From IMG/VR virus record IMGVR_UViG_3300025108_000015, positions 32,001 to 96,000 of that record: 64,000 bases of DNA; one strand, 5' to 3'. Under the pieces are notes generated by a model. That model ran no database searches, had not been told where the DNA came from, and saw nothing but the letters and a program-made list of their open reading frames with translations. A program made the position numbers and the translations under genes. The stretch is from a virus. Positions 286-32,680 of the stretch are shown here, one piece after another (position 1 is the stretch's first letter; each line of letters starts with the position of its first letter).

Positions 286-304
286 AATAATTTTTGTATA
301 TTAG
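273..304 (+). promoter_or_regulatory. Bacteroidota sigma70-like promoter
   Basis: TTTG(273-276)-N20-TATATTAG(297-304). Confidence 0.7.
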
Positions 305-308
305 TAAT

Positions 309-728
309 ATGAAAAAGCAGTTACAACAACTTTGGGACTTCCAAAGTATATATGACCAAACACGGAATACAACACCTACATTAATTGAGCCAGATGATTA
401 CTATTTAAGGTATCGTTTGGGTAAAGAAGAGTTGGTGGAGTATTTAGAGGCTTGTAATAACGATGACATTGTGGAAGTTACAGATGCACTTGCTGACCAA
501 CTATATATCTTATTAGGTACTATGGTTGCTCATGGTATGGGTGATATCATCGAGGATGTCTTTGATGAGGTCCATCGTTCTAATATGTCAAAGTTAGGTG
601 AGGATGGTAAACCTATTTATCGTGAGGATGGTAAAGTATTAAAAGGGCCTAATTTTTCAAAACCAAATCTATCTCAATTCTTAGCCGATACTACTCAAAT
701 TGAACTTCCTTTTAATGAGAAAGTTTAA
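309..728 (+). CDS. MazG-like all-alpha NTP pyrophosphohydrolase (DR2231-like)
   Basis: EELVEY...EVTDALADQLY and FDEVHRSNMSK...REDGKVLKG motifs; ATG at 309 preferred over the upstream alternative start. Confidence 0.8.
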   Translation: MKKQLQQLWDFQSIYDQTRNTTPTLIEPDDYYLRYRLGKEELVEYLEACNNDDIVEVTDALADQLYILLGTMVAHGMGDIIEDVFDEVHRSNMSKLGEDGKPIYREDGKVLKGPNFSKPNLSQFLADTTQIELPFNEKV

Positions 729-729
729 G

Positions 730-933
730 ATGGCACTACGAGGTGAATCACATCCACAACATAAACTTACGGAGGACCAAGTAAAGTCTATTCGCCAGTT
801 GTGGGCTGTTGGTCATAGAAATACAAGAGTTTTAGCACGAAACAATGGTGTATCACCCGCTAACATTCGTAGAATAGTAAGGGGAGAAACTTGGACACAT
901 ATTCTTTTTGGAGAATTTAATGATTATCAATGA
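730..933 (+). CDS. Stand-alone HTH DNA-binding domain of the type found at HNH endonuclease C-termini
   Basis: GESHPQHKLTEDQV..IR...LA...GVS...I..IVRGETWTHI pattern; no nuclease domain attached. Confidence 0.6.
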   Translation: MALRGESHPQHKLTEDQVKSIRQLWAVGHRNTRVLARNNGVSPANIRRIVRGETWTHILFGEFNDYQ

Positions 934-1691
934 AAGTAGAGGGTAAGGTATATTTTAATCCATCTAAATTTTCAGTAAGACCGATTTCAAAATCAGTTGC
1001 AAAAGACATAGTGGTAAATCACCATTATGCTGGAATTTGGACAAAAGTATCTTATGCATTGGGTTTGTTTTATGAATCCGATGAAGAACATCAGTTTTTC
1101 AGTGGTGTAAATGAGAAGTTAGTCGGAGTGGCTACGTATGGCGACCCCATAGGTAGGCATTCTGGCGCTTCTATTTCTGAACATATTGACCGAACTGAGG
1201 TATTTGAACTTACCAGATTATTTGTATTTGATGGATATGGGTGTAATATAGAAAGTTGGTTTGTAGGTCAGACCTTCAAGTGGTTACGCAAAAATACTCC
1301 CCATATTAAAGCACTTATCTCATACTCCGACCCTAAAGTAGGCCATAAGGGAACAATTTATATGTCTACAAATTGGATTTATCAAGGTAATCGTATCAGA
1401 CCAAACGATTCGTGGTTATTTAGATGGGAAGATGGTGGTGAATGGACTCATTCACGTACATCGTTCGTAAAGTTTGGTACTAACAACCCTACCAAAATAC
1501 AAGAAATGACATCAACGCCATTTTGGATTAAAAAGGAGTTGAGGAAACATAGATACGTTTACATTTTGGATAAGTCAAAAAAAAGTCGTATATTGAAGTC
1601 ATTGAAATACCCATCATTACCATATCCAACGGAAAATGAGGAATTTAAAGAAGAGATATACAAATTAGACCCAATTGAAAGAAGCAAATAA
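930..1691 (+). CDS. Mom-like GNAT-fold DNA modification protein, paralog 1
   Basis: GVATYG.P, ELTRLF, NIESWF, LISYSDP..GH.GTIY..TNW.YQG signature. Confidence 0.75.
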   Translation: MKVEGKVYFNPSKFSVRPISKSVAKDIVVNHHYAGIWTKVSYALGLFYESDEEHQFFSGVNEKLVGVATYGDPIGRHSGASISEHIDRTEVFELTRLFVFDGYGCNIESWFVGQTFKWLRKNTPHIKALISYSDPKVGHKGTIYMSTNWIYQGNRIRPNDSWLFRWEDGGEWTHSRTSFVKFGTNNPTKIQEMTSTPFWIKKELRKHRYVYILDKSKKSRILKSLKYPSLPYPTENEEFKEEIYKLDPIERSK

Positions 1692-2469
1692 AATATACGT
1701 AGACACGTCACGTGTTACAATTCGTGAGATTGGTAAGGCAACCGCAAAAGAGATGATTGTTACTTACCACTATTCTCATGCTTGGACGATGTGTAGATAC
1801 GCTCTTGGGATATTCTATGAAACTGATAAGAAAGACGTATTAGGTAATTCAGAACAACTAATTGGATGTTTAGTATATGGGTATCCAGTAGGTAGGTCAG
1901 CAATCAAGTCAGTTATCGATGGGTTAGAGAAAGACCAATGTTTGGAGTTGACACGATTGTTTATACACGATGGGTATGGGTCTAATATCGAGTCATACGC
2001 TATGGGTCAATCATTCCAATGGATTAAGGAGAATGCTCCTAATATCAAGATGTTACTCAGTTACGCTGATCCTGAACAATTACATTTAGGTGGTATCTAC
2101 CAAGCAACAAATTGGTTATACCAAGATTGTCGTGATATTCAACTGATGCCAAACTATTCTATATCAATCCAAGATAACCCACATAAGTGGATACACTCAC
2201 GGACTGTATTCTCACGTTGGGGGTCTCATAATTTAGACCATCTAAAAACTCAAATGGGTAAGGAGAACATAAAAGAGTTTTGGAGAAAGAAGGAGTCTGC
2301 TAAACACCGATACATCCAAGTATTGGGTCAGAACAAATCAGAGAAACGTAAGTTGACTAAACAACTCAAACACAAAGTGAGCCCGTATCCTAAAGATGCG
2401 AGTGAGTTCCTATCAGAGGTAGTCAGACACGAAACATTCGAGCCGGAAAATAAAGTAAGTTTTTGGTAA
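1675..2469 (+). CDS. Mom-like GNAT-fold DNA modification protein, paralog 2
   Basis: GCLVYG.P, ELTRLF, NIESY, LLSYADP...H.GGIYQATNW.YQ; colinear with paralog 1. Confidence 0.75.
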   Translation: MKEANKIYVDTSRVTIREIGKATAKEMIVTYHYSHAWTMCRYALGIFYETDKKDVLGNSEQLIGCLVYGYPVGRSAIKSVIDGLEKDQCLELTRLFIHDGYGSNIESYAMGQSFQWIKENAPNIKMLLSYADPEQLHLGGIYQATNWLYQDCRDIQLMPNYSISIQDNPHKWIHSRTVFSRWGSHNLDHLKTQMGKENIKEFWRKKESAKHRYIQVLGQNKSEKRKLTKQLKHKVSPYPKDASEFLSEVVRHETFEPENKVSFW

Positions 2470-2540: not shown

Positions 2541-4373
2541 ATGAAAGATATGAAATTAATTGACAAGTTAAAACAATTTGTAGAGAGTGACAAAAGACAC
2601 AAAATCATTACCGCTAGTATCTCTGAAATCAGAGAAATTTTTAAACCCAAAGAAGATGTTCCAGCAGTATTTAAGATTCAGTTTTATATCTTTAACTCTG
2701 TATGGAATCGTATTCCTAACTTTGGTATCCCTTCTGTATTAGAAGATAAATTAAAATACGCAATCAAAATTGGTAGTGGTATTTCTTCGTATAACCAACT
2801 TCCGATTTCTTGGATTGAGGATAAAGTTTTTAAACTTAAAAACTTCCTAATGAAAGATAGGGGACACATCACTACTTTAGTGTGTTGGTTGTACTCACAT
2901 AAGTTTCCAATAACAGCTTTTGAAAAAATTGTTGATAAACTAATCACCCAATACAAATCAGTTGAGGATTGGAAGAACGATTTTTCAGTTAAACACACTG
3001 TTTCCATATTAGAAGAAGTTCAATCTTACATTGAGGAATCAAAAAACCAACAAAAGAAAGTTGGAACTAAGAAATCACACCAAACACTTTCCATTCAGAT
3101 GATTTGTGAGAATGTTTCATCGTTTGGTGAAACACTTGATGATTTTGAAGTAAGTATTGAGGTTCGTAGAGAAAGTATCTATGTTCATATGTTAGAGATT
3201 TTAGCTCTTAACAACACTTTTAACAAATGGATTGAGTATCAGAAAGCATTCCTTGGTTTTGTTGGTAAGGTAATGAGAAAGGATGGTTCTGATAATTACT
3301 TCAGAGATGTTATTAATATAGATGCAGTTAGAAATCACATTGATGATTTGAATACATTTATGGGTAATAGTAAGATTGTTATCTTCTCATCGGCAATTGC
3401 TTCTTACAAACGAAAGGTATCTGAATATAGTGAAATCATCCCCATGAGGTTATTGGGATTACGAAAGTTGACCACCTTTGATAAGAGGGGTTCATACTAC
3501 TACTCATCAACTGAAAGTGTTATTGAAGAACAATTGATGGCTTTACATACTAATAATGTTACTGAAGAATCCGCTAAATTGGAATTGACAATTATGAATC
3601 AAATAGCTGATAATGTGGCTTGGGATTCATATGAAGAGAAACGAAAAGATTTGTTGAGTTCACAACCTGATAAGTTGAATACCAAAAATTTAGAACATGC
3701 TTCATTGGGTAAGGAAGATTTTGGTATGGCGTGTGTGGATGCTGTAATGGAGTTGAGAGCAGCTCTACCACATATGGGTGATAGAAAATCAGAAAAACAA
3801 ATTAACCTATTGGTTACTGATTTTGTGAATGGTTTGATTGTACAAATGGAAGAAGTGGTTGATGATGAAACTCTTTTCAATGTTGGGGCTACTATGGATA
3901 AGCGATTCCAAAAGCTGATTCTACCAACTTATACCAAACTTAAAAATTCATACACATCAGAATCTCCAAAGGATAACAAACAAACGATTTACGAAACTCT
4001 ACTTAATGAACTTAAACCATACCTAAACGGACAGGCTAAGTTTAAAGTAATGAAGTTTACATCCGAATCTTACAAAGAACCTGAAGTTGCTACCATTAAT
4101 TTTGGAACAACTAAACGAGGTGAAGCTGGTTTAGATTTGGGACAACGAAAACAAAGTATGGGTTACACCATTCATAATTGTATTGTTCAGCAGAAACACC
4201 ACAACCGCTCTGAAAACGATGTTGACCACAATATTTCAAATGTGGACTATTGGAAGTGGTATTCTAAAGCCAACTTTGATTTGGTGATGAAGAATCAACA
4301 ACACTTCATCTCAATTGGTGAGTTTAGTGTTTTGGCTGATGCACACACATTGAATAACATTTTTAACGGATAG
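2541..4373 (+). CDS. 610-aa protein of unknown function; possibly degenerate DUF262 (ParB/Srx) plus C-terminal HNH-like (GmrSD-like)
   Basis: Long clean ORF with its own promoter. Weak echoes only: KDRGHITTL vs DGQQRLTTL, and LDLGQ...NC...KHHNRS vs an HNH core. Confidence 0.35.
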   Translation: MKDMKLIDKLKQFVESDKRHKIITASISEIREIFKPKEDVPAVFKIQFYIFNSVWNRIPNFGIPSVLEDKLKYAIKIGSGISSYNQLPISWIEDKVFKLKNFLMKDRGHITTLVCWLYSHKFPITAFEKIVDKLITQYKSVEDWKNDFSVKHTVSILEEVQSYIEESKNQQKKVGTKKSHQTLSIQMICENVSSFGETLDDFEVSIEVRRESIYVHMLEILALNNTFNKWIEYQKAFLGFVGKVMRKDGSDNYFRDVINIDAVRNHIDDLNTFMGNSKIVIFSSAIASYKRKVSEYSEIIPMRLLGLRKLTTFDKRGSYYYSSTESVIEEQLMALHTNNVTEESAKLELTIMNQIADNVAWDSYEEKRKDLLSSQPDKLNTKNLEHASLGKEDFGMACVDAVMELRAALPHMGDRKSEKQINLLVTDFVNGLIVQMEEVVDDETLFNVGATMDKRFQKLILPTYTKLKNSYTSESPKDNKQTIYETLLNELKPYLNGQAKFKVMKFTSESYKEPEVATINFGTTKRGEAGLDLGQRKQSMGYTIHNCIVQQKHHNRSENDVDHNISNVDYWKWYSKANFDLVMKNQQHFISIGEFSVLADAHTLNNIFNG

Positions 4374-4381
4374 TAAATAAT

Positions 4382-5500
4382 ATGAGAGTATTAGTTATAC
4401 CAAATTATACAAATTTTGGGGCTGTTAAGGACATCAATAGGGATTCGTTCCTATTGGTGTTTAAGTCCTTTATAGAGAATACTGAAATCGGAAAAGAGTG
4501 GGAGTGGATTCTACCATATCCTGACTTTGATAATCATCCTGGCATCATTAATAAGTTTGAACACCCTAATGTTGAACTCATAAAGATGGACGGGTTAGAT
4601 TGCTTTCCACCTAAAATGAGAGTAGACTATCCACATAAGTTTTTCAATAGACTGATTGAAAAATACAATGGTGAGTTTAATCTTATATGGTCACATTTGC
4701 CGGAGTGGACAAATGAATTCAAAGTATCAAGAATATATAATAAATCACAACCTATTATTGGGTATTGTCATTGGTGGGAAATCAAAGACAATGGGGCTAG
4801 AGACAATAACTCATTTTGGAGAAATGTCAAAGGTATGTTACAAATGAAAGTTTGTGGTGTAAACTCACAATGGGTAAAGGATTTAGTTATCAGACGAGCA
4901 TCAGAAACATTCCAACCACATATTACTGATAAATTAGAAGAAATTATCCAACCTTGGTATTTGGGATGTGATTCAGCCACACCAACATCCACATATGAAC
5001 CTAAAACTATTCTATTTAATCATAGATGGGGAGTATATACTGGCGCCGAGTGGTTCTTCGAGGCAATGGATGAGTTATGGGAAACTCGTAAAGACTTCCA
5101 AGTATGGACTTCATTAAAAGATATGGGTAAATCATATACCAAGTATATTGGACACGCTGATAGAGATGTGTATATGAATCAAATGTCCAAAGCACATTTT
5201 GGTGTAGGTACATTCCAAGGATATTCGGCTTGGTCAATGTCGGCTACTGATGGGTTAAGTCGAGGTGTACCTTACTTACTTCCAAATGATTTTTGTTATC
5301 CCGAAATGGTTGGTGAGGAATATCCACTACTTTATAATGGTAAAGAAGAATTTAAGAAAATGGTTGTTAAGTTATTGGATGGTGAAATCGAACGTCCTGA
5401 TGTAACTCATATAGCGGAGTCTTTACTATGGGAATCTCAACTTAAAAGCTGGGATGTCGAGAACAACTTTATTAATATGGCTAGAAAAGACTTTAATTAA
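4382..5500 (+). CDS. GT-B fold glycosyltransferase (GT4-like), coupled to the DNA polymerase gene
   Basis: ILFNHR, then FGVG...SAWSMSATDGLSRGVPYLLP...YPEMV resembles the GT4 E-x7-E region; TAA/ATG overlap with polB. Confidence 0.65.
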   Translation: MRVLVIPNYTNFGAVKDINRDSFLLVFKSFIENTEIGKEWEWILPYPDFDNHPGIINKFEHPNVELIKMDGLDCFPPKMRVDYPHKFFNRLIEKYNGEFNLIWSHLPEWTNEFKVSRIYNKSQPIIGYCHWWEIKDNGARDNNSFWRNVKGMLQMKVCGVNSQWVKDLVIRRASETFQPHITDKLEEIIQPWYLGCDSATPTSTYEPKTILFNHRWGVYTGAEWFFEAMDELWETRKDFQVWTSLKDMGKSYTKYIGHADRDVYMNQMSKAHFGVGTFQGYSAWSMSATDGLSRGVPYLLPNDFCYPEMVGEEYPLLYNGKEEFKKMVVKLLDGEIERPDVTHIAESLLWESQLKSWDVENNFINMARKDFN

Positions 5501-8016
5501 TGTATCAAAATGTATACTTCGAAAAAGAAAACAACCTCATCCATTGTTGGGATGATGAGAAAGGTTACTTCACATCTAAATACCGTAGATATGCTTACGT
5601 TAGAGATGGGAATGGTGCTCATACTTCTATTCATGGAGAGAGGCTAAAGAAAATCAACTTTTGGAAGCAAGACGATGGTCTTGAATTATATGAAAGTGAT
5701 GTAAACGAGATGACACGTTTTCTGATTGACCAATATGGTGATTCAGATGAGGTATCGAATGGACATACTGTACTTACCTTTGATATTGAGGTAGAGATGA
5801 ATAGTGGTCTGCCTGATACAAATGAAGCTAAGAATGCTATGACCTCAGTCGCAGGTCATGATTCGGTGAGTGGTGATTACTTTGTATATGTTGTAAATAA
5901 AGGTGAGAAGATTAACAAGACCATCAAAGGTGCTACGGTAGAATCGTTCGATACTGAAGAAGGTATGTTGATTGCGTTCCTAAACAAATGGAAAGAAATT
6001 AATCCAACTATTATTACTGGTTGGAACATTGACTTCTTTGATGTCACGTATCTATACAATCGAATGAAGAGAGTATTGGGTGAGTCTACTGCAAATCAAT
6101 TATCACCAATTGGTAAAGTTCATTGGAATAAGTATCGTAATCGTTATTTGATTGCTGGAGTATCTGCATTGGACTACATCGCTTTATTCAAGAACTTTAC
6201 GTATACTGAATATCCAAACTACCGATTAGACACTATTGCTCGATTAGAGTTGGGTAGAGGTAAGATTGAGTATGAGGGTAACCTTGACCAATTATTCAGA
6301 GATGACTTAGAGAAGTTTATTGAGTACAACTTGGTAGATGTTGAGTTAGTTGTTGATATGGACAAGAAACTTCAGTTCATTGATTTAGCTAGAGCAATAT
6401 GTCACGCAGGTCACGTATTTTATGAAGACTTCTTATTCTCGTCAAAATGGCTAGAGGGTGCAATGTTAACGTTCCTACGTAGGAGTGGTCGTGTTGCTCC
6501 AAACAAACCAAGACGAAGAGCACGTAATGATGATGGAACTGAGGCTGAAGGTAAGTTTACCGGCGCATATGTAAAAGAACCTAAACCTGGTCTTTACAAA
6601 TGGGTATATGATTTGGATTTAACATCACTATATCCATCTATCATTATGACCATCAATATCTCGCCAGAGACAAAGATTGGTAAGTTAAAGAACTATGTGG
6701 CTGAAGACCATATGAAGGGTAAGATTGAAACATATTCAATTATCGATGACGATGGTAATGAGTTTCCTCCATTGGCTAAGGATAAGTTTATGAACTTTAT
6801 CGAAAAGTCAAACTACTCAGTTGCTGCTAATGGTGTTCTATATCGTAGAGATAAGGTGGGTGTGATTCCTGAGATTCTTAATGTTTGGTTTGACAAACGT
6901 GTGGAATACAAAGACCTTATGAAGAAGTATGGTAAGGAAGGTAATGATGAGTTGTATAAGTTCTACTCTCAACGTCAGTTGGTACAAAAGATTATGTTGA
7001 ACTCCTTATATGGGGTACTTGGTCTACCATCATTCCGATTCTATGATGTGGATAATGCTGAGGCAACCACAATCACAGGTCAGACTGTAATTAAGACTAC
7101 CGAGTTGATTGCTAACCAATACTACACAAAGAACATTGGTAAGGAAGCAGATTATAATGTGTATACTGATACGGATTCCGTATTCTATCAGGCAGCACCA
7201 CTTGTAAAAGCTCGTAATCCTGAAATCGATGAGAACTCGGATGAACAAATGATTCCAGCAATTCTATCAGTCGCTAAAGAGGTTGAAGAGCACATCAACA
7301 AGGTGTATGATATGATGGCATTTAAATTGTTCAACGTAGACACTCACCGATTCGACATCAAACAAGAGACTATCGCTAAGGGTGGTTTTTGGGTATCGAA
7401 GAAGAGATACGCTCAATGGATTATAAATGATAATACCGTTGATTGTGATAAGTTGGATGTGAAGGGGTTAGATGTAAAACGTTCATCATTTCCAGTATAC
7501 TTCAAAGAGGTAATGTCTACTGTACTGATGGATATCCTAAAAGATGAGGACAAGAAGAAGTTGGACGATAAAATCCTAAACTATAAGGATGGGATGACTG
7601 ACCAACCATTTGTGAATATCGCAAAGAACTCGGCTGTAAAGGATATGTCTAAGTATAGGTTTAAGGACCAAGCACTTGGTGAGTTCATGAAGGGGACACC
7701 TGCTCACGTAAAGGCTGCACTTACTTACAACCAACTATTGAAGAAGTTTGATGCTCCTTACAAATACGAACCAATGAAGGATGGTGATAAGATTAAGTGG
7801 GTATATCTAAAGAAGAATCCACTTGGACTTCAGACTACCGGATTTACTGGTCACTCCGACCCACCTGAGATAAACGCATTCATTGAACAATACATTGACT
7901 ATGATTTGATTTGGGAGAAGGAGTTGAATAACAAACTCGATGACTTCTACAAAGCAATGAATTGGGAGAAACCAAATCCCAACCTTGCTGCTGCAGCACA
8001 ATTTTTCTCATTTTAA
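5500..8016 (+). CDS. polB: Family B DNA polymerase (T4 gp43-like)
   Basis: Exonuclease FDIE, GWNIDFFD and YNLVD; polymerase DLTSLYPSII, KIMLNSLYG, YTDTDS; no intein seen. Confidence 0.97.
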   Translation: MYQNVYFEKENNLIHCWDDEKGYFTSKYRRYAYVRDGNGAHTSIHGERLKKINFWKQDDGLELYESDVNEMTRFLIDQYGDSDEVSNGHTVLTFDIEVEMNSGLPDTNEAKNAMTSVAGHDSVSGDYFVYVVNKGEKINKTIKGATVESFDTEEGMLIAFLNKWKEINPTIITGWNIDFFDVTYLYNRMKRVLGESTANQLSPIGKVHWNKYRNRYLIAGVSALDYIALFKNFTYTEYPNYRLDTIARLELGRGKIEYEGNLDQLFRDDLEKFIEYNLVDVELVVDMDKKLQFIDLARAICHAGHVFYEDFLFSSKWLEGAMLTFLRRSGRVAPNKPRRRARNDDGTEAEGKFTGAYVKEPKPGLYKWVYDLDLTSLYPSIIMTINISPETKIGKLKNYVAEDHMKGKIETYSIIDDDGNEFPPLAKDKFMNFIEKSNYSVAANGVLYRRDKVGVIPEILNVWFDKRVEYKDLMKKYGKEGNDELYKFYSQRQLVQKIMLNSLYGVLGLPSFRFYDVDNAEATTITGQTVIKTTELIANQYYTKNIGKEADYNVYTDTDSVFYQAAPLVKARNPEIDENSDEQMIPAILSVAKEVEEHINKVYDMMAFKLFNVDTHRFDIKQETIAKGGFWVSKKRYAQWIINDNTVDCDKLDVKGLDVKRSSFPVYFKEVMSTVLMDILKDEDKKKLDDKILNYKDGMTDQPFVNIAKNSAVKDMSKYRFKDQALGEFMKGTPAHVKAALTYNQLLKKFDAPYKYEPMKDGDKIKWVYLKKNPLGLQTTGFTGHSDPPEINAFIEQYIDYDLIWEKELNNKLDDFYKAMNWEKPNPNLAAAAQFFSF

Positions 8017-8048
8017 TTTGGATAGTCCAATTTAATTTCGTATATTAG
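8017..8048 (+). promoter_or_regulatory. Bacteroidota sigma70-like promoter
   Basis: TTTG(8017)-N20-TATATTAG(8041). Confidence 0.75.
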
Positions 8049-8072
8049 TATAATAAATAACAAATAATAACA

Positions 8073-8768
8073 ATGAAAAAGAATTCTATTGAAGGTTTCA
8101 TCTCTCGTTACAACTTGGGTGGTGAAGTGGAGTCAGTAAAAGTTAATTCTACTGACGCCGGAATGCAAGTTTCATTCATCTCTGATGACAAAACTCTATT
8201 GGGTACTGTTGAGAGTGAAGAGACTGGTTTTCCAAATGGAGAGTATGGGGTTTATACCACATCTCAATTAAAAGGTCTACTTGGTGTATTGGGTAGTCAA
8301 GTTGATGTATCCGAAGGTACGGCTGCATTGGTATTCTCTGATGGTAAAACTTCAGTAAACTATATGTTGGCTGACCTCTCAGTTATTCCAGTAGTACCTG
8401 AACTAAAACAACTTCCACCATTTACATCTAATGTAACTATGGATGGTGATTTCATCGCTACCTTTACAAAAGCTAAGGGTGCTATGTCTGATTCAGACAC
8501 GTTTACATTTACGTGTAAAGAAAACAAAGGTGAGGTAATTTTAGGTTACTCTAAAATCAACTCTAACCGAATCTCTATGAATGTCGAGTGTACGTGTGAA
8601 AGTGATGTTGAACCAATTTCATTCTCAGCTAAGTACTTGAAAGAGATTCTAAGTGCTAATCGTGGTGCTAAGTCATCTTCTTTGAAGATTTCACCACAAG
8701 GTCTTGCTCACGTTGCATTTGAGCATGATGGATTCAAGTCTAATTACTATTTAGTAGAGATTAAGTAA
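8073..8768 (+). CDS. Sliding clamp (gp45/PCNA-like)
   Basis: 231 aa with a repeated alpha/beta pattern and FSAKYLKEIL...LKIS..GL..V.F C-terminus; lies between polB and the clamp loader. Confidence 0.8.
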   Translation: MKKNSIEGFISRYNLGGEVESVKVNSTDAGMQVSFISDDKTLLGTVESEETGFPNGEYGVYTTSQLKGLLGVLGSQVDVSEGTAALVFSDGKTSVNYMLADLSVIPVVPELKQLPPFTSNVTMDGDFIATFTKAKGAMSDSDTFTFTCKENKGEVILGYSKINSNRISMNVECTCESDVEPISFSAKYLKEILSANRGAKSSSLKISPQGLAHVAFEHDGFKSNYYLVEIK

Positions 8769-8769
8769 T

Positions 8770-9960
8770 ATGCAGTTTTGGGACACAGAACCAACGAAGC
8801 CGGTGTTTGACTATAATGTTGAGAAAGAAAAGTTCATTGAGAATATGGACTACCTTTCGTCAATGTCAGTAGAAGAGCAGACGCTTTACAAAAAGTGGGA
8901 TGAGTGGAATTCAGACTTACCAACTTCAATGAAACGGAAAGCCGCAATGGCTCAGTATATTGACCAACTATGGTCACCTACTGACATTACGAACAAGGAC
9001 CAAACAATCAAAGAGATTGAGGACCTTGACCCATACGTTGAGATTGTAACTGACTCCAAAGAATCCACTCGTTGGACTGAAATCCGTAAGTTAATCCATA
9101 CAATGTCATTCACTGCTAATCCAGGTCGTAATGTAAAGATGTACATTAAAGACCGAGTAAGTGGTAAGATGTTGGGGTTGGTTTCTTTGGGTTCTGATGT
9201 CACTTCATTGGGAGTTAGGGATAACTATATAGGATGGACTAAGGAGAACAAATTCCAAGATGGTAGATTGAATCACACTACAATAGCAAGTACTATTGTG
9301 TGTACTCAACCATTAGGATATAACTTCTTAGGTGGTAAGTTAGTAGCCTGTATGACTACATCTCCAGTCGTTCGTGAACATTGGAAAGAAAAGTACGGAC
9401 AAGAACTTATTGCAGTAGGTACTACTTCACTATATGGTATCCACTCTCAATATAATGGTATTCCACATTTCAAAACATTGGGTGAGTCAGCTGGTAAAGT
9501 TGCTACCAAGCCAGATGATTCAGTTTATGATGTATGGCATCAATGGTTAAAAGAAAACCAGCCAGATGAGTATGCTAGACACACAACTCAGAAGGATGGG
9601 ATTGCTGGACCTGTATCAGGTGTAAAGCAACGTATCCTATCAATGATATTCAAAGAATTGGGTATTAAACAAAGTCATTATATGCATGGATTCAAACGAG
9701 GTGTATACTTCGCTATGATGTATGATAATGGAAATGAGTTTCTTCGTAATGAGATTGGCGAAAGTGAATTGAAACTAAAGAAGAAGTTTGAGGAAGGTGA
9801 CGATTATACTATGAGGTGGTGGAAGAAGAAGGCTATTAAACGATACTCTAAACTATTTGATGAGGGTCGTATTAAACCAGAACCATTATTTTATCTTGAC
9901 ATCATTGGTATGTCTTGGGAAGAAGCAAAAAAACAATACTTAAAAGAAGTAGGACGATGA
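8770..9960 (+). CDS. DUF4338 (DruA-like, Mom-related GNAT fold) protein
   Basis: IASTIVCTQPLGYNFLGGKLVA, W...YG..L.AVGTTSLYG..SQYN, GES.G pattern. Confidence 0.7.
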   Translation: MQFWDTEPTKPVFDYNVEKEKFIENMDYLSSMSVEEQTLYKKWDEWNSDLPTSMKRKAAMAQYIDQLWSPTDITNKDQTIKEIEDLDPYVEIVTDSKESTRWTEIRKLIHTMSFTANPGRNVKMYIKDRVSGKMLGLVSLGSDVTSLGVRDNYIGWTKENKFQDGRLNHTTIASTIVCTQPLGYNFLGGKLVACMTTSPVVREHWKEKYGQELIAVGTTSLYGIHSQYNGIPHFKTLGESAGKVATKPDDSVYDVWHQWLKENQPDEYARHTTQKDGIAGPVSGVKQRILSMIFKELGIKQSHYMHGFKRGVYFAMMYDNGNEFLRNEIGESELKLKKKFEEGDDYTMRWWKKKAIKRYSKLFDEGRIKPEPLFYLDIIGMSWEEAKKQYLKEVGR

Positions 9961-10877
9961 GTAATTCACTATGGGTTGAGAAGTATCGACCAGACACATT
10001 AGAAGGTTATGTAGGTAACGACCATATCCTTGAGAAGGTAAAGATTTATATCGAGAATGATGACGTACCACACTTACTACTTTATGGAGTAGCAGGTACT
10101 GGTAAAACCACTCTCGCTAAAATCATTACAAACCAAATTGATTGTGATGTTATGTACATTAACGCATCTGATGAAAACTCAGTAGATGCAGTTAGGGATA
10201 AGATTAGAGGGTTCGCATCATCTATGGGATTCCGTAAGTGGAAAGTTGTAATATTAGATGAGTCTGATTACTTAACACCAAACGCACAAGCAGCACTCCG
10301 TAATCTTATGGAGACATTCAGTAAGTCAACACGATTTATCTTAACGTGTAACTATGTGGAGAAGGTAATCGACCCTATCCAATCAAGATGTCAAACATTT
10401 GCTATTGCACCTCCATCAAAGAAGGAAGTAGCTAAACGTTTACACCAAATCTTAAATAAAGAAAGTGTTACGTTTAACAACGAAGACCTTGCCGTGTTGG
10501 TGAATAGTGGATATCCTGATATTCGTAGAGTACTAAACGCAGCACAACGTCAAGTTGTCAAGGGTGAGTTAAAGATTGATACCACATCTACTGTACAAGC
10601 TAATTACACCGATAATGTAATTAAGGTTTTACAAAAAAGTGGTGACATCAAAGAACAATTCACGGAAATCAGACAAATCATCAATGATTCAAAATTAAAG
10701 GATTTTACACCATTGTATCGTTCTCTTTATGACGAGGTAGATAACTACGCAAGTGGTAAAGTGGGTCAGACTATCTTAAACATCGCAGATGGTCAGTACA
10801 AAGACGCAATGGTAGTTGATAAGGAAATCAACGTAATGGCGATGATGTTAAATATATTAATAACAATAGGAAAGTAA
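9957..10877 (+). CDS. Clamp loader AAA+ subunit (RFC small / T4 gp44-like)
   Basis: WVEKYRP, Walker A GVAGTGKTT, NASD, Walker B ILDESD, SRC motif; start at ATG 9957. Confidence 0.93.
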   Translation: MSNSLWVEKYRPDTLEGYVGNDHILEKVKIYIENDDVPHLLLYGVAGTGKTTLAKIITNQIDCDVMYINASDENSVDAVRDKIRGFASSMGFRKWKVVILDESDYLTPNAQAALRNLMETFSKSTRFILTCNYVEKVIDPIQSRCQTFAIAPPSKKEVAKRLHQILNKESVTFNNEDLAVLVNSGYPDIRRVLNAAQRQVVKGELKIDTTSTVQANYTDNVIKVLQKSGDIKEQFTEIRQIINDSKLKDFTPLYRSLYDEVDNYASGKVGQTILNIADGQYKDAMVVDKEINVMAMMLNILITIGK

Positions 10878-10880
10878 ATT

Positions 10881-11051
10881 ATGGCAAATTCAAACGAATT
10901 ATTCGAACAAATGACCGAGCTATTTGCAGACTTCACCGAGTCTCACAATGGAACGACTAAGAAGTCATCTACCCAAGCTAGAAAAGCAATTGGTGAGTTG
11001 AAGAAATTAGTTACTGAGTATCGTAAGGCTTCGGTAGAAGAAAACAAGTAA
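10881..11051 (+). CDS. Histone H1-like (Hc1-type) nucleoid protein, 56 aa; missed by ORF track
   Basis: My translation: MANSNELFEQMTELFADFTESHNGTTKKSSTQARKAIGELKKLVTEYRKASVEENK. It matches the Bacteroidota Hc1-like pattern G.K.A..RARK....L.K...E.RK.S.E. Confidence 0.6.
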   Translation: MANSNELFEQMTELFADFTESHNGTTKKSSTQARKAIGELKKLVTEYRKASVEENK

Positions 11052-11054
11052 GTT

Positions 11055-11345
11055 ATGGCTAAGAAAAAAGGTAAAGTAGTAAGTATGGGTGGTCCATCTA
11101 ATGCACAACCAGCACCGCAAATACAATTAGACCCATTCAAGTTACCAACAGTAACTTGTCCTAATTGTGATGGTATATTTTTTACGGAAGTTTCCATGTA
11201 CAAGGAAGTGCCAGCAGTTCAGTCACCATCAGGTCAAGCATCCATGTTACCTATTCCCGTAGTCATTTGTAATGAATGTGGGACAGTACATCCAAAGTTC
11301 ACTCCAAAAGAGTTTTTTGAAGATGGCGGAAGCAAAGAAAGCTAA
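11055..11345 (+). CDS. Small zinc-ribbon protein
   Basis: CPNC...CNECG. Confidence 0.6.
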   Translation: MAKKKGKVVSMGGPSNAQPAPQIQLDPFKLPTVTCPNCDGIFFTEVSMYKEVPAVQSPSGQASMLPIPVVICNECGTVHPKFTPKEFFEDGGSKES

Positions 11346-11763
11346 GACCTTATTTCAACACCTTTCGGGAATAAAGGAGAAGAAAACATCTTGGGAGTCC
11401 CTTTCAGTTATGGACAAAAAGAGTTTCGAACCATATATGGTAAATAGATTTCTATCTATGAATATGGGTCTTCTTGAGTTGGTCAATGAGTTACAACAAT
11501 ATACCATTGGCCAACTCTCACCGAAAGATGTATACAAGTTATACTTGGATGTCTTACCTAAGAAAAAGTCATTCGACAAGTATATAAAAGCAAAGGGTGG
11601 TGACAAGTATAATGATAAGGTATTGAGTTACTTGACACGATACTTCGAAGTATCAGAACGTGAAGTTAAGGATTATCTTGAAATTTTATCAAAAGATGAA
11701 GTAATTGAGATTATTCAAAAGTTTGGTGTAGATAAAAAAGACATAAAAAAATGGCTGAAATAA
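11323..11763 (+). CDS. Clamp loader accessory subunit (T4 gp62-like)
   Basis: F.PYMVNRFLS...L..VNE motif and position; ATG 11323. Confidence 0.6.
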   Translation: MAEAKKAKTLFQHLSGIKEKKTSWESLSVMDKKSFEPYMVNRFLSMNMGLLELVNELQQYTIGQLSPKDVYKLYLDVLPKKKSFDKYIKAKGGDKYNDKVLSYLTRYFEVSEREVKDYLEILSKDEVIEIIQKFGVDKKDIKKWLK

Positions 11764-12161
11764 TAAAAGAAGCAAAGACTAAAGTTGAGTGGGTTAATGA
11801 AGAAGAAAGACCCATATATGGTGAGATGACCGCAAGAGAATTTTGTGAGGATACTTATCCTGAAATGATGGAAGAGTACAAAAGAATCATGTGGGAACAA
11901 TACGAGACCTTTTGTAAAAAACAACGAAACTACGGACCAGGTAACATCTCGGTTGGAACTCCGTTGGAGACAAAAGATGACGTAAAATTATCACTAACCG
12001 GATTATGGTTTAGAATGAACGATAAGGTTCAGAGACTAAAACAACTCGTAGTATTAGGTCAGCCAGATGAGGTTGGTGAATCACTACAAGATACCTATGC
12101 AGATTTATCAGTATATGGTATCATTGCCCAATTAGTCCAAAACGGAAAATGGGCAAAGTAA
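11751..12161 (+). CDS. DUF1599 / nucleotide-modification-associated all-alpha domain
   Basis: KQRNYG..NI, RMNDKVQRL, ESLQDT..DLSVYGII. Confidence 0.65.
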   Translation: MAEIIKEAKTKVEWVNEEERPIYGEMTAREFCEDTYPEMMEEYKRIMWEQYETFCKKQRNYGPGNISVGTPLETKDDVKLSLTGLWFRMNDKVQRLKQLVVLGQPDEVGESLQDTYADLSVYGIIAQLVQNGKWAK

Positions 12162-12171
12162 TTGTTAAAAC

Positions 12172-12226
12172 TTAACAATTTAATAACATTAAAATTTGGT
12201 GGTTCCGCCATAATTTTGTATATTAG
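12172..12226 (+). promoter_or_regulatory. Promoter with upstream TTAACA/ATAACA direct repeat
   Basis: TTAACA 12172, ATAACA 12183; TTTG(12195)-N20-TATATTAG(12219). Confidence 0.75.
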
Positions 12227-12231
12227 AGTAT

Positions 12232-13167
12232 ATGAAAAAGTCAGAAGTATCAAATGTGTTTAACCTCTCCATACGAGAAGACGTAGGTGGGGTTTCCAAA
12301 GTATCATACTCCCAATATACGATGTGGGCGAACTGCCCTAAACAATGGAAGTTAACCTATATGGATGGTCACAAAGACTTTGACCCATCCATTCACCTTG
12401 TCTTTGGTACTGCCATGCACGAGACTCTTCAAGAGTGGTTACAAATCTTGTATAAGGATGGGCCTACTGAAGCAGATAAACTCGACTTGGGTCAGTTGTT
12501 ATTAACTTCAATGGCTAATGAGTACAAATCAATGTCAGAACGATATGGTTCATTCACAACCAAAGCTGAGATGAACGAGTTCTACGATGATGGTATTCAA
12601 ATCATTGACTACATCAAAAAGAATCGTACTGATTACTTCTCAACTAAGAAGTTAAGCTTGAGGGGTGTAGAGTTACCAATCTTCCACGAGACCTCAAACA
12701 AAAACATTATGATGAAGGGATTCATCGATTTAGTGTTTGAAGACCAAGATGGTATCATAGAGATTTGGGATATCAAGACATCTACAAGAGGATGGAATGA
12801 GTATCAGAAGAAAGATAAAACCAAGACTGCTCAATTAGTTCTATATAAGAAGTTCTTCTCAGAACAATACGGATGGCCTATCGACAAGATTCAAGTCAGA
12901 TACTTTATTGTAAAACGTAAGTTGTGGGAAGAAGCAATGTTTGCTCAGAAGAGAGTTCAAGAGTTTGTACCTGCTCATGGTAGTATTACAATGAGAAACG
13001 TATCAACATCATTCGATGATTTTATATCTAAATCATTCAATGAAGATGGGTCATATAATACTGAAGGTGAGTTTCCTGCTATCGCAGGTAAGAACTCCAA
13101 GAATTGTAAGTATTGTCCTTTCAAGAAAAGTGAGTTGTGTAATCGTAAGGAAAGAATCAAATCCTAA
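12232..13167 (+). CDS. PD-(D/E)XK exonuclease, Cas4/AddB-like, with Fe-S cysteines
   Basis: SYSQ...W..CP, GTAMHE, GFIDL, DIKT, QL.LY, C-terminal CKYCPF...C. Confidence 0.85.
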   Translation: MKKSEVSNVFNLSIREDVGGVSKVSYSQYTMWANCPKQWKLTYMDGHKDFDPSIHLVFGTAMHETLQEWLQILYKDGPTEADKLDLGQLLLTSMANEYKSMSERYGSFTTKAEMNEFYDDGIQIIDYIKKNRTDYFSTKKLSLRGVELPIFHETSNKNIMMKGFIDLVFEDQDGIIEIWDIKTSTRGWNEYQKKDKTKTAQLVLYKKFFSEQYGWPIDKIQVRYFIVKRKLWEEAMFAQKRVQEFVPAHGSITMRNVSTSFDDFISKSFNEDGSYNTEGEFPAIAGKNSKNCKYCPFKKSELCNRKERIKS

Positions 13168-13170
13168 TAT

Positions 13171-13701
13171 ATGAGAAAGTTACTATTAGTACCTGCTATT
13201 TTATTAATTTCAGCTACCTACATGATTAAAAAAAAGGAATCTTTAATTAATATTCCTTTAAAAGAAATTAACCAAATCGAAGTAACACCCCCAAATGTAC
13301 AATTAGCACCCGTTTCGTTAAGAAACCTAAACGATTTAGTAGAAGCAATCATTTGGGTAGAAAGTCGTGGTGACACGTCTGCATATTGTAAAAAAGAAGA
13401 TGCTGTTGGTGTTCTTCAAATTAGACCAATAATGTTAAAAGAAGTTAACCGAATTTTGGATTTAAAAGGTTCAGGTTACATATTTACATTAGAAGACCGA
13501 TGGAGTAGAGATAAATCTATTCAAATGTTTAACATAGTTGCAAATTATTATCACGAAACAAGTTCATATGAAAAAATCGCTAGGTGTTGGAATGGTGGTC
13601 CGAAGGGATTACAAAAAAAACAAACCAAGAAGTATTGGAGGAAGGTTCAAAAAAGACTCAAAAAATATGAGAATAGCACTGCTGGGGAGCCCAACGTATG
13701 A
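13171..13701 (+). CDS. Lysozyme-like / transglycosylase with N-terminal signal
   Basis: AIIWVES catalytic Glu, GVLQIRP, ARCWNGGP; hydrophobic N-terminus. Confidence 0.7.
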   Translation: MRKLLLVPAILLISATYMIKKKESLINIPLKEINQIEVTPPNVQLAPVSLRNLNDLVEAIIWVESRGDTSAYCKKEDAVGVLQIRPIMLKEVNRILDLKGSGYIFTLEDRWSRDKSIQMFNIVANYYHETSSYEKIARCWNGGPKGLQKKQTKKYWRKVQKRLKKYENSTAGEPNV

Positions 13702-14062
13702 GAATAGGGGTGAAGTAAAAGAACTCGTTTGGAATCTAAAACAAAAATTTGGAGAAGAATTAATACTAATAACACGTGGAAATACTGATGGTATAGAAAA
13801 ATGGGTACGTAAGTTCTCATTAGAATTAGGTGTTAAGTATATAGAGTATAATCCAGCACATACTATAATGTCATTATATAGTGGCATGGAATCTGAATAT
13901 TATGGTAAGCCATATCACCCAACTCAGCCTTTACATCAATATGATTGTGTAGTCAGAGGTTCAGATAAGTTATACTTCTTTGGGGAAATTAAAAAAAATG
14001 AATTCAACCATTTTAAACGAGTATTAAGTCGTAATGGTAAAACTGCTAAATTTATACAATGA
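13667..14062 (+). CDS. SLOG-superfamily protein (DUF2493-like)
   Basis: MRIALLGS..Y, ILITRG...GIEK....F....GV.Y.EY.P.H; ATG 13667. Confidence 0.55.
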   Translation: MRIALLGSPTYENRGEVKELVWNLKQKFGEELILITRGNTDGIEKWVRKFSLELGVKYIEYNPAHTIMSLYSGMESEYYGKPYHPTQPLHQYDCVVRGSDKLYFFGEIKKNEFNHFKRVLSRNGKTAKFIQ

Positions 14063-15894
14063 ATATAATAGGAATGCACACCGGCCATGATGCATCATTA
14101 TCGTTAGTACGTAATGGCAAATTAGTATCATCATTAAGCGTTGAAAGATACAGTAGGGTAAAGAAAGATGAAGTATTAAGTAGAGAGTTCTTTAACCACT
14201 TTCTACAAGTAAACGAAATGACTATTGATGATATAGATTGTATCACAATGGCATTTTGGAACTATGATAATTGTAATTGGATAAAACTATACAGCCCAAC
14301 CAATTCCGTTTATCCACTTAATACATTTGGCGCACAACGACAAGACACGAGAATACTCAACCACTTGGATGAGTTTCCATACAAACCAGAATATGTTGAT
14401 GGGCTTGGGATATCTCTGCCGGACTTTATAGACAACATCGACCCTCCATTTGGGCCTGAAGTGATACAACATAGTGAATCATTTCCATTGATAATTGATA
14501 TAGAGGGGTACACCCGACCAATTAATGGTTGCTTTGTAAGACATCATACTGCCCATGCTGCAGCTGCATTTTATACATCACCATTTCCAAGGGCAGCTGT
14601 ATTTACGGCTGACGCTTCGATGCATACTCCAAAAAATTGTAGTACCTCAATGGTTGGTAATGGTAGTATACTACAATCTTTTAAATCTCCTGAATTTATG
14701 TTGGGGAACTTCTATGATGTAGCTACTGAGTTTTGTGGGTTAGGGCCGGGAACATTAAAAGCAGGTACATTAATGGGATTATCTTCATTCGGTAATGTAA
14801 ATGGTAAGACCATGGAGCAGTGGGAAAAATGGTGTCTCCCATTTAATCAAATTAGTACTGAATATCACCGATATAGTGATTGGTTATTTTCAGAAATCAG
14901 TGGTAGATACCCATTCATAAGTACAGCACGTAAAGAGTACGTAAATAAAGAACCAGGTTATCAGTTTATAAATAGAATATACCAAACAGTGTATTCAAAA
15001 GAAGAATCAGATTCTCAAGAAGTCATGGATATTGCTGCAAGTATTCAATATTTATTAGAACGTGCTCTTATTAAGTATATCAATGAATTGTATGAAGATA
15101 CTAAAAATTTCAACGATGGTAATTTGTGTTTAGCCGGTGGTACATTTTTAAATTGTAACGCAAATTATAAGATATTAAAAGAAACAAAATTTAAGAATAT
15201 ACACTTTTTCCCAGCGTGTGGTGATGATGGAATACCAGCTGGTTCGGCATTGTTTTACTATCACTTTAATTTAGGTGGTAAACGTGTTAACTACACTACA
15301 AATGAACTTGCTTATTTAGGTGTTACATATGACCACCAACCTGAAACTGACACAAATGCAGTTCCATTAGATTTGGATGTAGTTGCTCAAAATATTGCTG
15401 ATGGTAAAATTGTGTGTTGGTATCAAGGTCACTCTGAAGTAGGTCCACGTGCATTGGGTAATCGTTCTTTTATAAGTGACCCTCGTAATAAAGAGATGAA
15501 GGATATTCTAAACTCAAGAGTTAAATTCAGAGAATGGTTTAGACCATTTGCGCCAGTAGTGTTAACCGAAGATAAGGAGGAGTGGTTCAATATGGATTTT
15601 GAGTCACCATTTATGTTACATACTGTACCATGTAGAAAGCCACAAGAAATACCATCAGCAGTTCATATAGACAATACATCACGTGTTCAGACTTTAACAA
15701 GAGACCATAACCCTATATTTTACGATTTGATTTCTAAATTTAAGGACATAACTGGTGTGCCAGTTGTACTAAATACTTCACTGAATGTAAAAGGTGAACC
15801 TATTGTGGAAACGCCCGAAGATGCAATGAAATTATTTGATGAGTCTGATGTTGATATATTAGTAATCAACGATATGATGTATTTTAAAAATTAG
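14059..15894 (+). CDS. Carbamoyltransferase, NodU/CmcH/TobZ family
   Basis: HDAS...ERYSR.K, HHTAHAAAAF, GTLMGL, LAGG..LNC, DDG...G, GPRALGNRS, VK.RE.FRPFAP, H.D.TSR.QT, LNTSLN. Confidence 0.92.
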   Translation: MNIIGMHTGHDASLSLVRNGKLVSSLSVERYSRVKKDEVLSREFFNHFLQVNEMTIDDIDCITMAFWNYDNCNWIKLYSPTNSVYPLNTFGAQRQDTRILNHLDEFPYKPEYVDGLGISLPDFIDNIDPPFGPEVIQHSESFPLIIDIEGYTRPINGCFVRHHTAHAAAAFYTSPFPRAAVFTADASMHTPKNCSTSMVGNGSILQSFKSPEFMLGNFYDVATEFCGLGPGTLKAGTLMGLSSFGNVNGKTMEQWEKWCLPFNQISTEYHRYSDWLFSEISGRYPFISTARKEYVNKEPGYQFINRIYQTVYSKEESDSQEVMDIAASIQYLLERALIKYINELYEDTKNFNDGNLCLAGGTFLNCNANYKILKETKFKNIHFFPACGDDGIPAGSALFYYHFNLGGKRVNYTTNELAYLGVTYDHQPETDTNAVPLDLDVVAQNIADGKIVCWYQGHSEVGPRALGNRSFISDPRNKEMKDILNSRVKFREWFRPFAPVVLTEDKEEWFNMDFESPFMLHTVPCRKPQEIPSAVHIDNTSRVQTLTRDHNPIFYDLISKFKDITGVPVVLNTSLNVKGEPIVETPEDAMKLFDESDVDILVINDMMYFKN

Positions 15895-31947: not shown

Positions 31948-32680
31948 TGCAGGTCGTGGAAGGCACCACGCATACAATTACAGTATTCAATCTTGGCAGA
32001 AGTGGGCTGAGAAAAATAATGCTGAAGTTGTAATTTGGGATACTGCGTTATATACTTGGGAAGAGATGACTATCCCATGGCAACGATATCACTTATTTAA
32101 AATACTTGACCATAACGAGATAGAATTTGACCAAGTTCTAATGGTTGATTCCGATACGATAGTACATCCAGATACACCTAATTTCTTTGAAATGAACGAA
32201 CGTAAGTATACTGGTGTTCTTGATTTGGGGTGTTGGGAATGGACTGGTAGGTCACTAAGACATTACAAAGATATGTTCGATGGTTACAAGCTAGATAGAG
32301 GTATGTACTTTAATGGTGGATTTCAAATTGTAAACGAATCCCATAGAGAATTCTTTGATTACGTATTAGACTTTTATTTTAAAAATCAAGATACTTTGGT
32401 AGAAAAGCAAAAAGCAGGATTGGGTACTGACCAAACTGTTATAAACTATCTGATACAAACTCAAGGAATTGATTTGAAGATGTTACCTGCCACATTCAAT
32501 CTACATCATATGTCGAGTAAGAACCTACTTAACTTTGGCCAATCGTGGTGGGGTGATAGTATGGATAATCTATACGAACAAGCGTGGGTATATCATTTTA
32601 ATGCAATTCCTAAAAATGGATTGAATAGAAACTCATCATACTTTATAAAAAGAGCATACGAGGAATTATGGGGAGAATAG
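31913..32680 (+). CDS. GT8-like / nucleotide-diphospho-sugar transferase
   Basis: VDSD (DxD), YFNGG, DQT.IN, HFN. Confidence 0.65.
   Translation: MKKNIIFIPAIDAGRGRHHAYNYSIQSWQKWAEKNNAEVVIWDTALYTWEEMTIPWQRYHLFKILDHNEIEFDQVLMVDSDTIVHPDTPNFFEMNERKYTGVLDLGCWEWTGRSLRHYKDMFDGYKLDRGMYFNGGFQIVNESHREFFDYVLDFYFKNQDTLVEKQKAGLGTDQTVINYLIQTQGIDLKMLPATFNLHHMSSKNLLNFGQSWWGDSMDNLYEQAWVYHFNAIPKNGLNRNSSYFIKRAYEELWGE

Follow-up and report, generated by a model that had tools for sequence, protein, structure and literature searches.

What does a DruA-family (DUF4338) protein do when its gene stands alone inside a phage replication operon, between the sliding clamp and the clamp loader? The question is raised by a stretch of 64,000 nucleotides (nt), positions 32,001 to 96,000 of the IMG/VR virus record IMGVR_UViG_3300025108_000015; we call this whole stretch the window and number positions from its first letter. 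The record spans 172,976 bp and is about 90% complete, and its nearest cultured relative is the Microcystis phage Mel-JY01, with 48% identity in family B DNA polymerase (PolB); the DruA gene belongs to a large uncultured T4-like marine phage. Our best answer, to which we give an even chance, is that this DruA is a DNA-modifying transferase resembling the Mom protein of phage Mu and co-expressed with the replisome. The features that frame the question are these:

8770..9960, plus strand: DruA/DUF4338 protein, solo, 396 amino acids (aa) (Pfam, PADLOC, PHROG, AlphaFold2 model)
8073..8768, plus strand: gp45/PCNA-type sliding clamp, 231 aa (phrog_223 "processivity factor", E 2e-10; AlphaFold2 model and Foldseek)
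9957..10877, plus strand: gp44-type clamp-loader large subunit, AAA+ (phrog_168, E 1.3e-80; Pfam AAA, DNA_pol3_delta2 and Gp44_lid)
5500..8016, plus strand: PolB, gp43-like, with the C-terminal tail ...AAAAQFFSF (Pfam DNA_pol_B, E 3e-42)

The clamp stop codon TAA (8766-8768) is followed by a single T and then by the DruA ATG at 8770, a gap of 1 nt, and the gp44 ATG at 9957 overlaps the DruA TGA in the sequence ATGA (9957-9960). Because the PHROG match was the sole profile match of the clamp open reading frame (ORF), its product was modelled; the model has a predicted local distance difference test score (pLDDT) of 92.7, and Foldseek relates it to PCNA-type clamps at E 1e-12 with TM-scores of 0.75-0.80. 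The sequence, the profiles and the clamp model agree in confirming what had first been noticed here, a DUF4338 gene set between clamp and loader by a 1-nt gap and an ATGA overlap.

By homology the protein is a true DruA-family member. It matches Pfam PF14236 at E 7.3e-24 (84.9 bits against a cut-off of 27, over profile positions 13-296 of 297), the PADLOC DruA model PDLC00002 at E 5e-26, and phrog_19197; PF14236 is likewise matched by 50 of 50 diverse homologues. By tblastn it aligns with the annotated DruA of DruABCDE operons at 25% identity over the GNAT core (E 3e-14). These matched defence genes, from a plasmid collection that was the only source of bacterial context, lie on Ralstonia and Pseudomonas plasmids and head operons in which three genes are followed by one for a helicase longer than 1,800 aa. 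When phage and defence DruA are aligned, 19 columns are invariant (G119, R120, K133, G136, R150, G155, P181, G188, G189, K190 and L191 in the first half; T218, T219, S220, G223, S226, Y228, G238 and R358 in the second), and it is the homology together with these shared positions that marks the window protein as a true DruA-family enzyme. From the same comparison, phage DruA probably shares its chemistry with defence DruA.

No MZB domain (PF09369), as found in DruE-type helicases, was detected in the whole 172,976-bp record, which upholds the solo status first claimed for the gene; DruB, DruC and DruD were not searched for individually. A Druantia system was rejected as a reading of the locus since the DruE-type domain was not found and the neighbours are clamp and clamp loader. 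Also rejected was a clue to the donor in residues 41-66 (8890-8967, KKWDEWN...AAMAQYI), which weakly match the latter half of the acyl-CoA-binding protein family: the match (E 2.4e-4) falls below the cut-off and occurs in one of 50 members, and we take it for chance. Sequence searches of the PDB with the protein and with the family profile gave nothing meaningful. In the literature searched, phage DruA-like proteins figure as structural look-alikes only (Phold preprint, 10.1101/2025.08.05.668817).

Placement was surveyed by scans of IMG/VR. In the best 80 loci, whose DruA is 67-100% identical to that of the window, the order PolB-clamp-DruA-gp44 is kept without exception (80/80). The gap between clamp and DruA is -2 to +20 nt in 78 of the 78 loci with a visible clamp, the gap between DruA and gp44 is at most 43 nt in 64 loci and 258-1467 nt in the rest, and the -4 overlap at the latter junction recurs in 32 related loci. 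The order clamp-DruA-loader holds at every clade locus that shows a clamp gene, well over 100 in number. A further scan, started from a homologue of 51% identity, yielded a sister clade with unchanged order and a clamp-DruA spacing of up to about 190 nt; there, a small ORF (an unknown protein of 139-141 aa), a dUTPase and sometimes a 2-oxoglutarate (2OG)-Fe(II) oxygenase come between DruA and the clamp loader. Examples of these inserts are L106:9233-10061, L068:9233-9942 and, with the oxygenase, L125:5662-7002. In Mel-JY01, which has neither DruA nor Mom, the clamp adjoins the loader. A quick maximum-likelihood tree (IQ-TREE; rows of at least 95% identity and matches shorter than 370 aa left out) unites the clamp-slot DruAs in one clade with an SH-aLRT support of 100, so that the gene order is owed to a single, since maintained relocation and not to repeated independent ones.

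Farther out, in a clade with 54-64% identity, DruA lies elsewhere and still within the replication module. The order in L150 and L154 is tRNA-like RNA, DruA, PolB, clamp, gp44, Mom, Mom; a glycosyltransferase (GT) homologue stands directly 3' of DruA in L128 and L142; and L118 has DruA, a 610-aa ORF and GT. In L128 the clamp/loader slot itself is filled by a Mom homologue (13561-14244), 48% identical to a window Mom, with DruA upstream and immediately followed by the GT homologue. Pelagiphages and cyanophages have DruA after gp55-gp47-gp46, and in Mosig it adjoins MazG. The most distant loci (L111 and L133) have PhoH, a protease and unknowns as neighbours and are uninformative, and no match came from scanning viral sequences with the distant homologue P0138. 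Random placement, which would have told against the original prediction, is not what this survey of neighbourhoods shows: the clamp slot is clade-wide, and distant DruA keeps to the replication module beside Mom, GT and PolB. Mom genes, two or three per record, are present in 14 of 16 related records; a search for Mom in Mosig, HTVC008M and S-B68, the three genomes checked, found none, and DruA is present in each. Since pelagiphages have DruA without Mom, DruA is not simply the third step of a Mom pathway, and the single complete multi-enzyme pathway of the original prediction was not borne out.

Among relatives separated by dS of 0.5-2.4, the DruA ratio of nonsynonymous to synonymous substitution rates (dN/dS) is 0.05-0.08, the same as for PolB, clamp and loader; on these ratios a gene in decay or one that hitch-hikes was rejected. 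Identity in the clade's most distant loci is 67-69% for DruA, 62-65% for the clamp, 54-57% for full-length PolB and 53-60% for gp44.

The fold was predicted with AlphaFold2 from an alignment of 50 diverse homologues (pLDDT 93.6, predicted template modelling score 0.89). The model comprises a four-helix N-terminal region (residues about 15-85), a GNAT core (about 86-330) and C-terminal helices, with a helical insertion at about 243-309 before the last strand (helices 250-304 between strands 235-239 and 311-316). Foldseek against the PDB gave acetyl- and acyl-transferase folds only, with weak E-values. VIA-align against 48,161 representative chains placed Mu Mom (8bv8_B) at the top, with Z 10.0, a root-mean-square deviation (rmsd) of 3.9 and 168 of 202 residues aligned; the runners-up were 49 GNATs at Z 8.7-7.5. 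A second run, over the top 1000 Foldseek chains, again had Mom first (Z 10.0, 173 residues aligned) and SpeG next (8.9). Over the two runs the rmsd to Mom was 3.9-4.1 and the alignment took in 83-86% of the Mom chain. The matches listed by the three PDB searches are all acetyl/acyl-transferase folds, nearly all of them GNAT, at Z 7.5-10.0 over model residues of about 80-343; FemA (1lrz) scores Z 7.7. On this model the protein has a GNAT fold, as independently called for DUF4338 by the Aravind group (PMC10853773), and the fold whose absence would have told against the whole idea is present, with Mu Mom as the first match.

Conserved candidates for active-site residues in DruA are R150, K190, S220, Y228 and R310. 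An invariant loop, N185-x-L-G188-G189-K190-L191, comes after strand 170-178 (beta4), and it resembles, without matching, GNAT motif A (Q/R-x-x-G-x-G/A). A search of DruA with the Mom family profile PF25680 gave no match at E <=0.01, and the same search genome-wide yields two Mom genes only. DruA-like folds were also observed in Klosneuvirinae giant viruses, namely Faunusvirus (E 2.5e-20), Yasminevirus and Dasosvirus, in proteins of 469 to 1260 aa (BFVD entries A0A3G4ZXG3, A0A5K0UAJ3 and A0A3G4ZRA1).

Domain fusions bear on the acceptor. Among 50%-identity representatives of the DruA family there are 20 long forms, of which eight are ParB_N-DruA fusions (P0128, P0133, P0134, P0137, P0155, P0163, P0164 and P0246); one is a fusion of DruA with a domain of the uracil-DNA glycosylase (UDG) superfamily and one with DUF3102 (P0149 and P0142). 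Phage enzymes that modify DNA often have ParB_N as a partner, and a UDG domain flips a base out of the DNA. A further fusion, of DUF4338 to DndF, has been described (PMC10853773). The ParB_N, UDG and DndF fusions together favour DNA as the acceptor. Several other N-terminal extensions, in DruA forms of 550-736 aa, have no Pfam match.

For the donor, a linked RNA is suggestive. Mom is established to use Gly-tRNAGly on double-stranded DNA (PMC13219725). In 12 loci of the distant clade (nine distinct sequences) ARAGORN predicts a tRNA-Gly(UCC/ACC) upstream of DruA, with 24-61 nt between its end and the start codon of the gene. These are look-alikes without a canonical D-loop, having TTATAGGAAA in place of the G18G19 type. 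The DruA-adjacent RNAs align with two copies in the genome of the window (C1:104305-104377 and C1:104445-104517), whose T-loops are also aberrant. With a covariance model (R1) the look-alikes score 80-97 bits, against 30-60 bits for ordinary tRNAs, and compensatory changes are seen in 13 of the 21 pairs of the cloverleaf. Invariant among them are G1-C72, C2-G71, G3-C70, C35, C36 and U73, which we take to be bacterial glycine identity elements.

R1-type RNA is present in five of five related records that are at least 74% complete. In L150, where DruA and Mom are both visible, the RNA adjoins DruA and not Mom; the complete, Mom-less pelagiphages Mosig and HTVC008M have DruA plus a related aberrant tRNA-Gly. 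It is this adjacency, together with the presence of the RNA in Mom-less pelagiphages with DruA, that ties the RNA to DruA: even in phages without Mom the look-alike goes with DruA. The pelagiphage RNAs (L169:1501-1572 in HTVC008M; L170:1501-1572, minus strand, in Mosig) lie 4-6.5 kb from DruA and have an ACC-type anticodon loop and no G18G19. The T-arm core of the Mosig RNA, GGGGCAGTACC, is identical to that of copy 1 in the genome of the window; the HTVC008M T-loop is aberrant but different.

A possible link to the clamp itself is offered by the start of the protein:

8770..8814, plus strand: conserved aromatic-acidic N-terminal peptide MQFWDTEPTKPVFDY, DruA codons 1-15, candidate clamp-binding motif

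In the model, residues 1-6 stay under a pLDDT of 50, and the mean over the first ten residues is 46. The N-terminus reads M-x-FWDTEP-x-x-P-x-FD[YF] in the window clade (MQFWDTEP..VFDY in the window) and FFDEP-x-FDF in the distant clade, and the motif is conserved over about 150 loci with a readable start; defence DruA is without it. PolB ends in [QEK]FF[SGA]F-COOH in nearly all relatives. Mom2-type proteins have a conserved [NST]FW-COOH after a Pro/Glu-rich linker, and Mom1-type proteins have no such tail; with this tail, one Mom of the pair may be able to bind the clamp. Clamp binding in T4 goes through PCNA-interacting peptides (PIPs), a C-terminal one in gp43 and an N-terminal one in RNase H (PMC3012046). 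The FWD...FDY peptide of DruA resembles the PolB tail ...QFFSF and is a weak candidate for a clamp tether. Genome-wide, [QNDS]F[FW] stands at a terminus in 5 of 218 plus-strand ORFs: PolB, DruA, Mom2, an endonuclease (phrog_945) and an HD hydrolase. That DruA works at the fork was an inference of the original prediction, and it gains weak new support from this resemblance to the clamp-binding tail of PolB; the origin of the gene order in one ancestral relocation, and the finding that Mu Mom acts post-replicatively (PMC13219725), have to be set beside it.

Put together, these observations suggest the following. DruA would be an active GNAT-fold transferase, made together with the phage replisome, and would covalently modify phage DNA much as Mu Mom does. 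Within this reading, that it is an active enzyme is predicted with high confidence. Its most likely acceptor would be a base in double-stranded DNA, and here we lean in favour. The most likely donor would be glycine on the phage's own non-canonical tRNA-Gly(UCC), that is, the glycyl-tRNA look-alike, for which we put the chance a little short of even. The N-terminal peptide may tether DruA to the sliding clamp so that new DNA is modified soon after synthesis; this last element is doubtful. Support for DruA as a base-modifying enzyme comes only indirectly, by way of the ParB_N and UDG fusions, the linkage to tRNA-Gly and the Mom gene found in the same slot of one relative; its chemistry is an inference.

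A number of points weigh against this explanation. The many clamp-slot loci have a single origin and are non-independent evidence. The lead of Mom over CoA-dependent GNATs, about 1.1-1.3 Z units in the structural comparison, is modest but reproducible, and the margin is small. An hhalign comparison of DruA with the Mom profile was not significant (probability 0.9%), on which ground filing DruA as a Mom-family member was rejected; of the GNAT/Mom-like character first assigned to it, the GNAT fold and the structural proximity to Mu Mom stand, and kinship with the Mom family by sequence or profile does not. From sequence and secondary structure, beta4 of DruA has no Arg where Mom has R111. The Gly-rich loop appears to sit where CoA-using GNATs bind pyrophosphate, so that the donor may instead be an acyl-CoA, and because of the resemblance of N-x-L-G-G-K-L to the CoA pyrophosphate loop the donor is the main uncertainty. 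In the genome of the window the look-alikes are about 60 kb from DruA, in the company of two Moms that could also use them, and the cyanophage S-B68 has DruA and no R1-type RNA. The terminal-motif argument is post hoc and at most suggestive, with three further matches, two of them in DNA enzymes, and p of about 0.05. Our literature search found no functional study of any DruA.

Three other explanations were weighed. DruA could be an acyl-CoA-dependent GNAT acting on the private tRNA, N-acylating the glycyl group on the charged look-alike as TacT and AtaT do, with the result either that Mom (or a second DruA paralogue) passes an N-acyl-glycyl group to DNA or that the look-alike is kept out of translation. 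The loop after beta4 is of a kind typical of CoA-binding GNATs, CoA-dependent GNATs reach Z 8.7-8.9, the look-alike can be adjacent to DruA, TacT acts on Gly-tRNAGly (as cited in PMC13219725), and two Moms accompany DruA in those 14 of 16 records; but the ParB_N and UDG fusions indicate DNA and not tRNA, the pelagiphages have DruA and look-alike without Mom, and defence-type DruA has the same invariant core and no known private tRNA. We consider this unlikely. Proteins and small molecules are the acceptors of most GNATs, and protein N-acetyltransferases are frequent among the structural matches, so DruA, encoded inside a replisome operon, might instead acylate a protein of the replisome or of the host (the clamp, the polymerase or a nuclease of the host, say) and so tune replication or disarm the host. 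That is quite unlikely given that Mom is the best structural match, that the ParB_N/UDG fusions and the tRNA-Gly adjacency would go unexplained, and that the family also occurs in Druantia and fused to DndF (PMC10853773), both of them DNA-centred systems.

A role in defence or counter-defence, as a decoy against host Druantia or an exclusion function against other phages, is very unlikely. It would agree with the homology to DruA of type I Druantia and with the frequent capture of defence components by phages; however, no other Druantia gene was seen (by the MZB search of the record, DruB-D not having been searched for), strong purifying selection keeps the catalytic-looking core fully conserved, the gene is stable in a core replication operon among phages whose PolB is only about 50% identical, and neither the tRNA look-alike linkage nor the DNA-domain fusions would be expected of a decoy. 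Returning to DruA as a DNA-modifying transferase, a bolder form, rather improbable as a whole, can be put forward: all DruA, of phages and of type I Druantia alike, would be GNATs that are distinct from Mom and modify DNA with an aminoacyl-tRNA as donor; those of T4-like phages would ride the clamp by a PIP-like N-terminal peptide and, with a translation-unfit phage Gly-tRNA, would introduce a hypermodified base not yet described while the DNA is replicated; and type I Druantia would, in that case, tell self from non-self by modification.

The plus-strand gene series in which DruA lies runs MazG-like, Mom, Mom, a 610-aa unknown, a 372-aa probable GT-B, PolB, clamp, DruA and gp44, followed by a 56-aa Hc1-like ORF, a Zn-ribbon ORF, gp62, DUF1599 and a PD-(D/E)XK nuclease. 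The further features are:

294..728, plus strand: MazG/PRA-PH-type nucleotide pyrophosphohydrolase (PF01503, E 2e-14)
930..1691, plus strand: Mom paralogue 1 (PF25680, E 1e-43 to 4e-43)
1714..2469, plus strand: Mom paralogue 2, ending ...VSFW-COOH (PF25680, E 1e-48)
4382..5500, plus strand: probable GT-B/GT4-like glycosyltransferase, 372 aa (ESM Atlas feature score 0.98, GT4 clusters only)
11272..11763, plus strand: gp62-type clamp-loader small subunit (phrog_225, E 3e-19)
11751..12161, plus strand: DUF1599, "nucleotide modification associated domain 1" (weak PF07659, E 3e-4, below cut-off; phrog_1485, E 2e-10)

The modification genes that the original prediction had placed around DruA fared unevenly: MazG and the two Moms are real, the latter by PF25680, and a Mom profile of the window clade matches Mu Mom 8bv8 at E 2.6e-22; the DUF1599 match is real but weak; and the GT candidate, translationally coupled to PolB, found no match in Pfam or PHROG and is assigned on language-model features alone. 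A scan of positions 4000-14000 for sigma-70 promoters and terminators found sites no more numerous than in shuffled sequence.

Some close relatives have a third short Mom-like ORF (29-35% identical), absent from the window, between PolB and the clamp (L012:740-1018, L013:215-493, L019:727-1005, L031:6633-7034 and L040:6633-7034). The 56-aa ORF 3' of the clamp loader (10881-11051) matches Hc1, a histone H1-like family (PF07432, E 1e-6); it was found in some relatives only, and in others it is placed elsewhere (e.g. L078-L082). In L055:2589-4832 and L062:1440-3683 about 1.3 kb interrupts the clamp-loader gene, in L048 and L050 about 1 kb interrupts PolB, and L044 has two overlapping PolB matches, suggesting a frameshift; the split replisome genes suggest introns, inteins or homing-endonuclease insertions.

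A widespread defence system takes its name from DruA/DUF4338, a family that is abundant among the T4-like phages of the ocean. What this locus adds is the clamp-slot synteny with its single origin, the invariant core common to defence DruA, the ParB_N/UDG fusions, the terminal-peptide pattern and a tRNA look-alike that accompanies DruA even without Mom. The phage group yields a testable hypothesis built of an enzyme and of candidates for its glycyl-tRNA donor, its DNA substrate and its anchor on the clamp. If true, DruA would be the second family of tRNA-dependent DNA-modifying enzymes after Mom, there would probably be a new modified base in the DNA of abundant marine phages, with a bearing on sequencing, restriction evasion and metagenomics, and there would be a hint at how type I Druantia marks or senses DNA.

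The closest comparison is with Mu Mom (PF25680; 8bv8; Silva et al. 2026, PMC13219725). Both are phage-encoded and GNAT-folded in structure or model, and by the order of secondary-structure elements DruA may share with Mom an extra helical insertion late in the fold, in Mom a helix-turn-helix-like element before the last beta-strand. The proven donor of Mom is a glycine tRNA, and DruA is genetically linked to one; the Mom genes of this phage group share positions in the replication module with DruA and swap with it. The essential residues of Mu Mom are R111, S124, D149 and R151, and the DruA sequence is without the S124 motif. Mom has 232 aa, against the 396 aa of DruA with its added N-terminal helical domain and C-terminal helices; it lacks the invariant Gly-rich loop that DruA has after beta4, and it is expressed late, whereas the replisome operon that holds DruA is of early type.

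DruA of type I Druantia (e.g. Ralstonia pUW163a, P. putida pKF715A) belongs to the same Pfam/PADLOC family and has the invariant residues in common; it differs in its DruABCDE operon, where the window gene is solo among replisome genes, and in its N-terminal domain, which is without the aromatic-acidic terminal peptide. The DruA-like proteins of Synechococcus and Pelagibacter T4-like phages are likewise solo, in Kyanoviridae-type myoviruses and in the replication/recombination region, but are only 26-36% identical to the window DruA and lie outside the clamp slot. As a concept, a dedicated, translation-unfit Gly-tRNA that feeds a GNAT-fold transferase has parallels in FemX/FemA, L/F-transferase and the staphylococcal non-proteinogenic tRNA-Gly; the acceptors of FemX/FemA and L/F-transferase, in contrast, are peptidoglycan precursors or proteins, and their relationship to DruA is at the superfamily level only.

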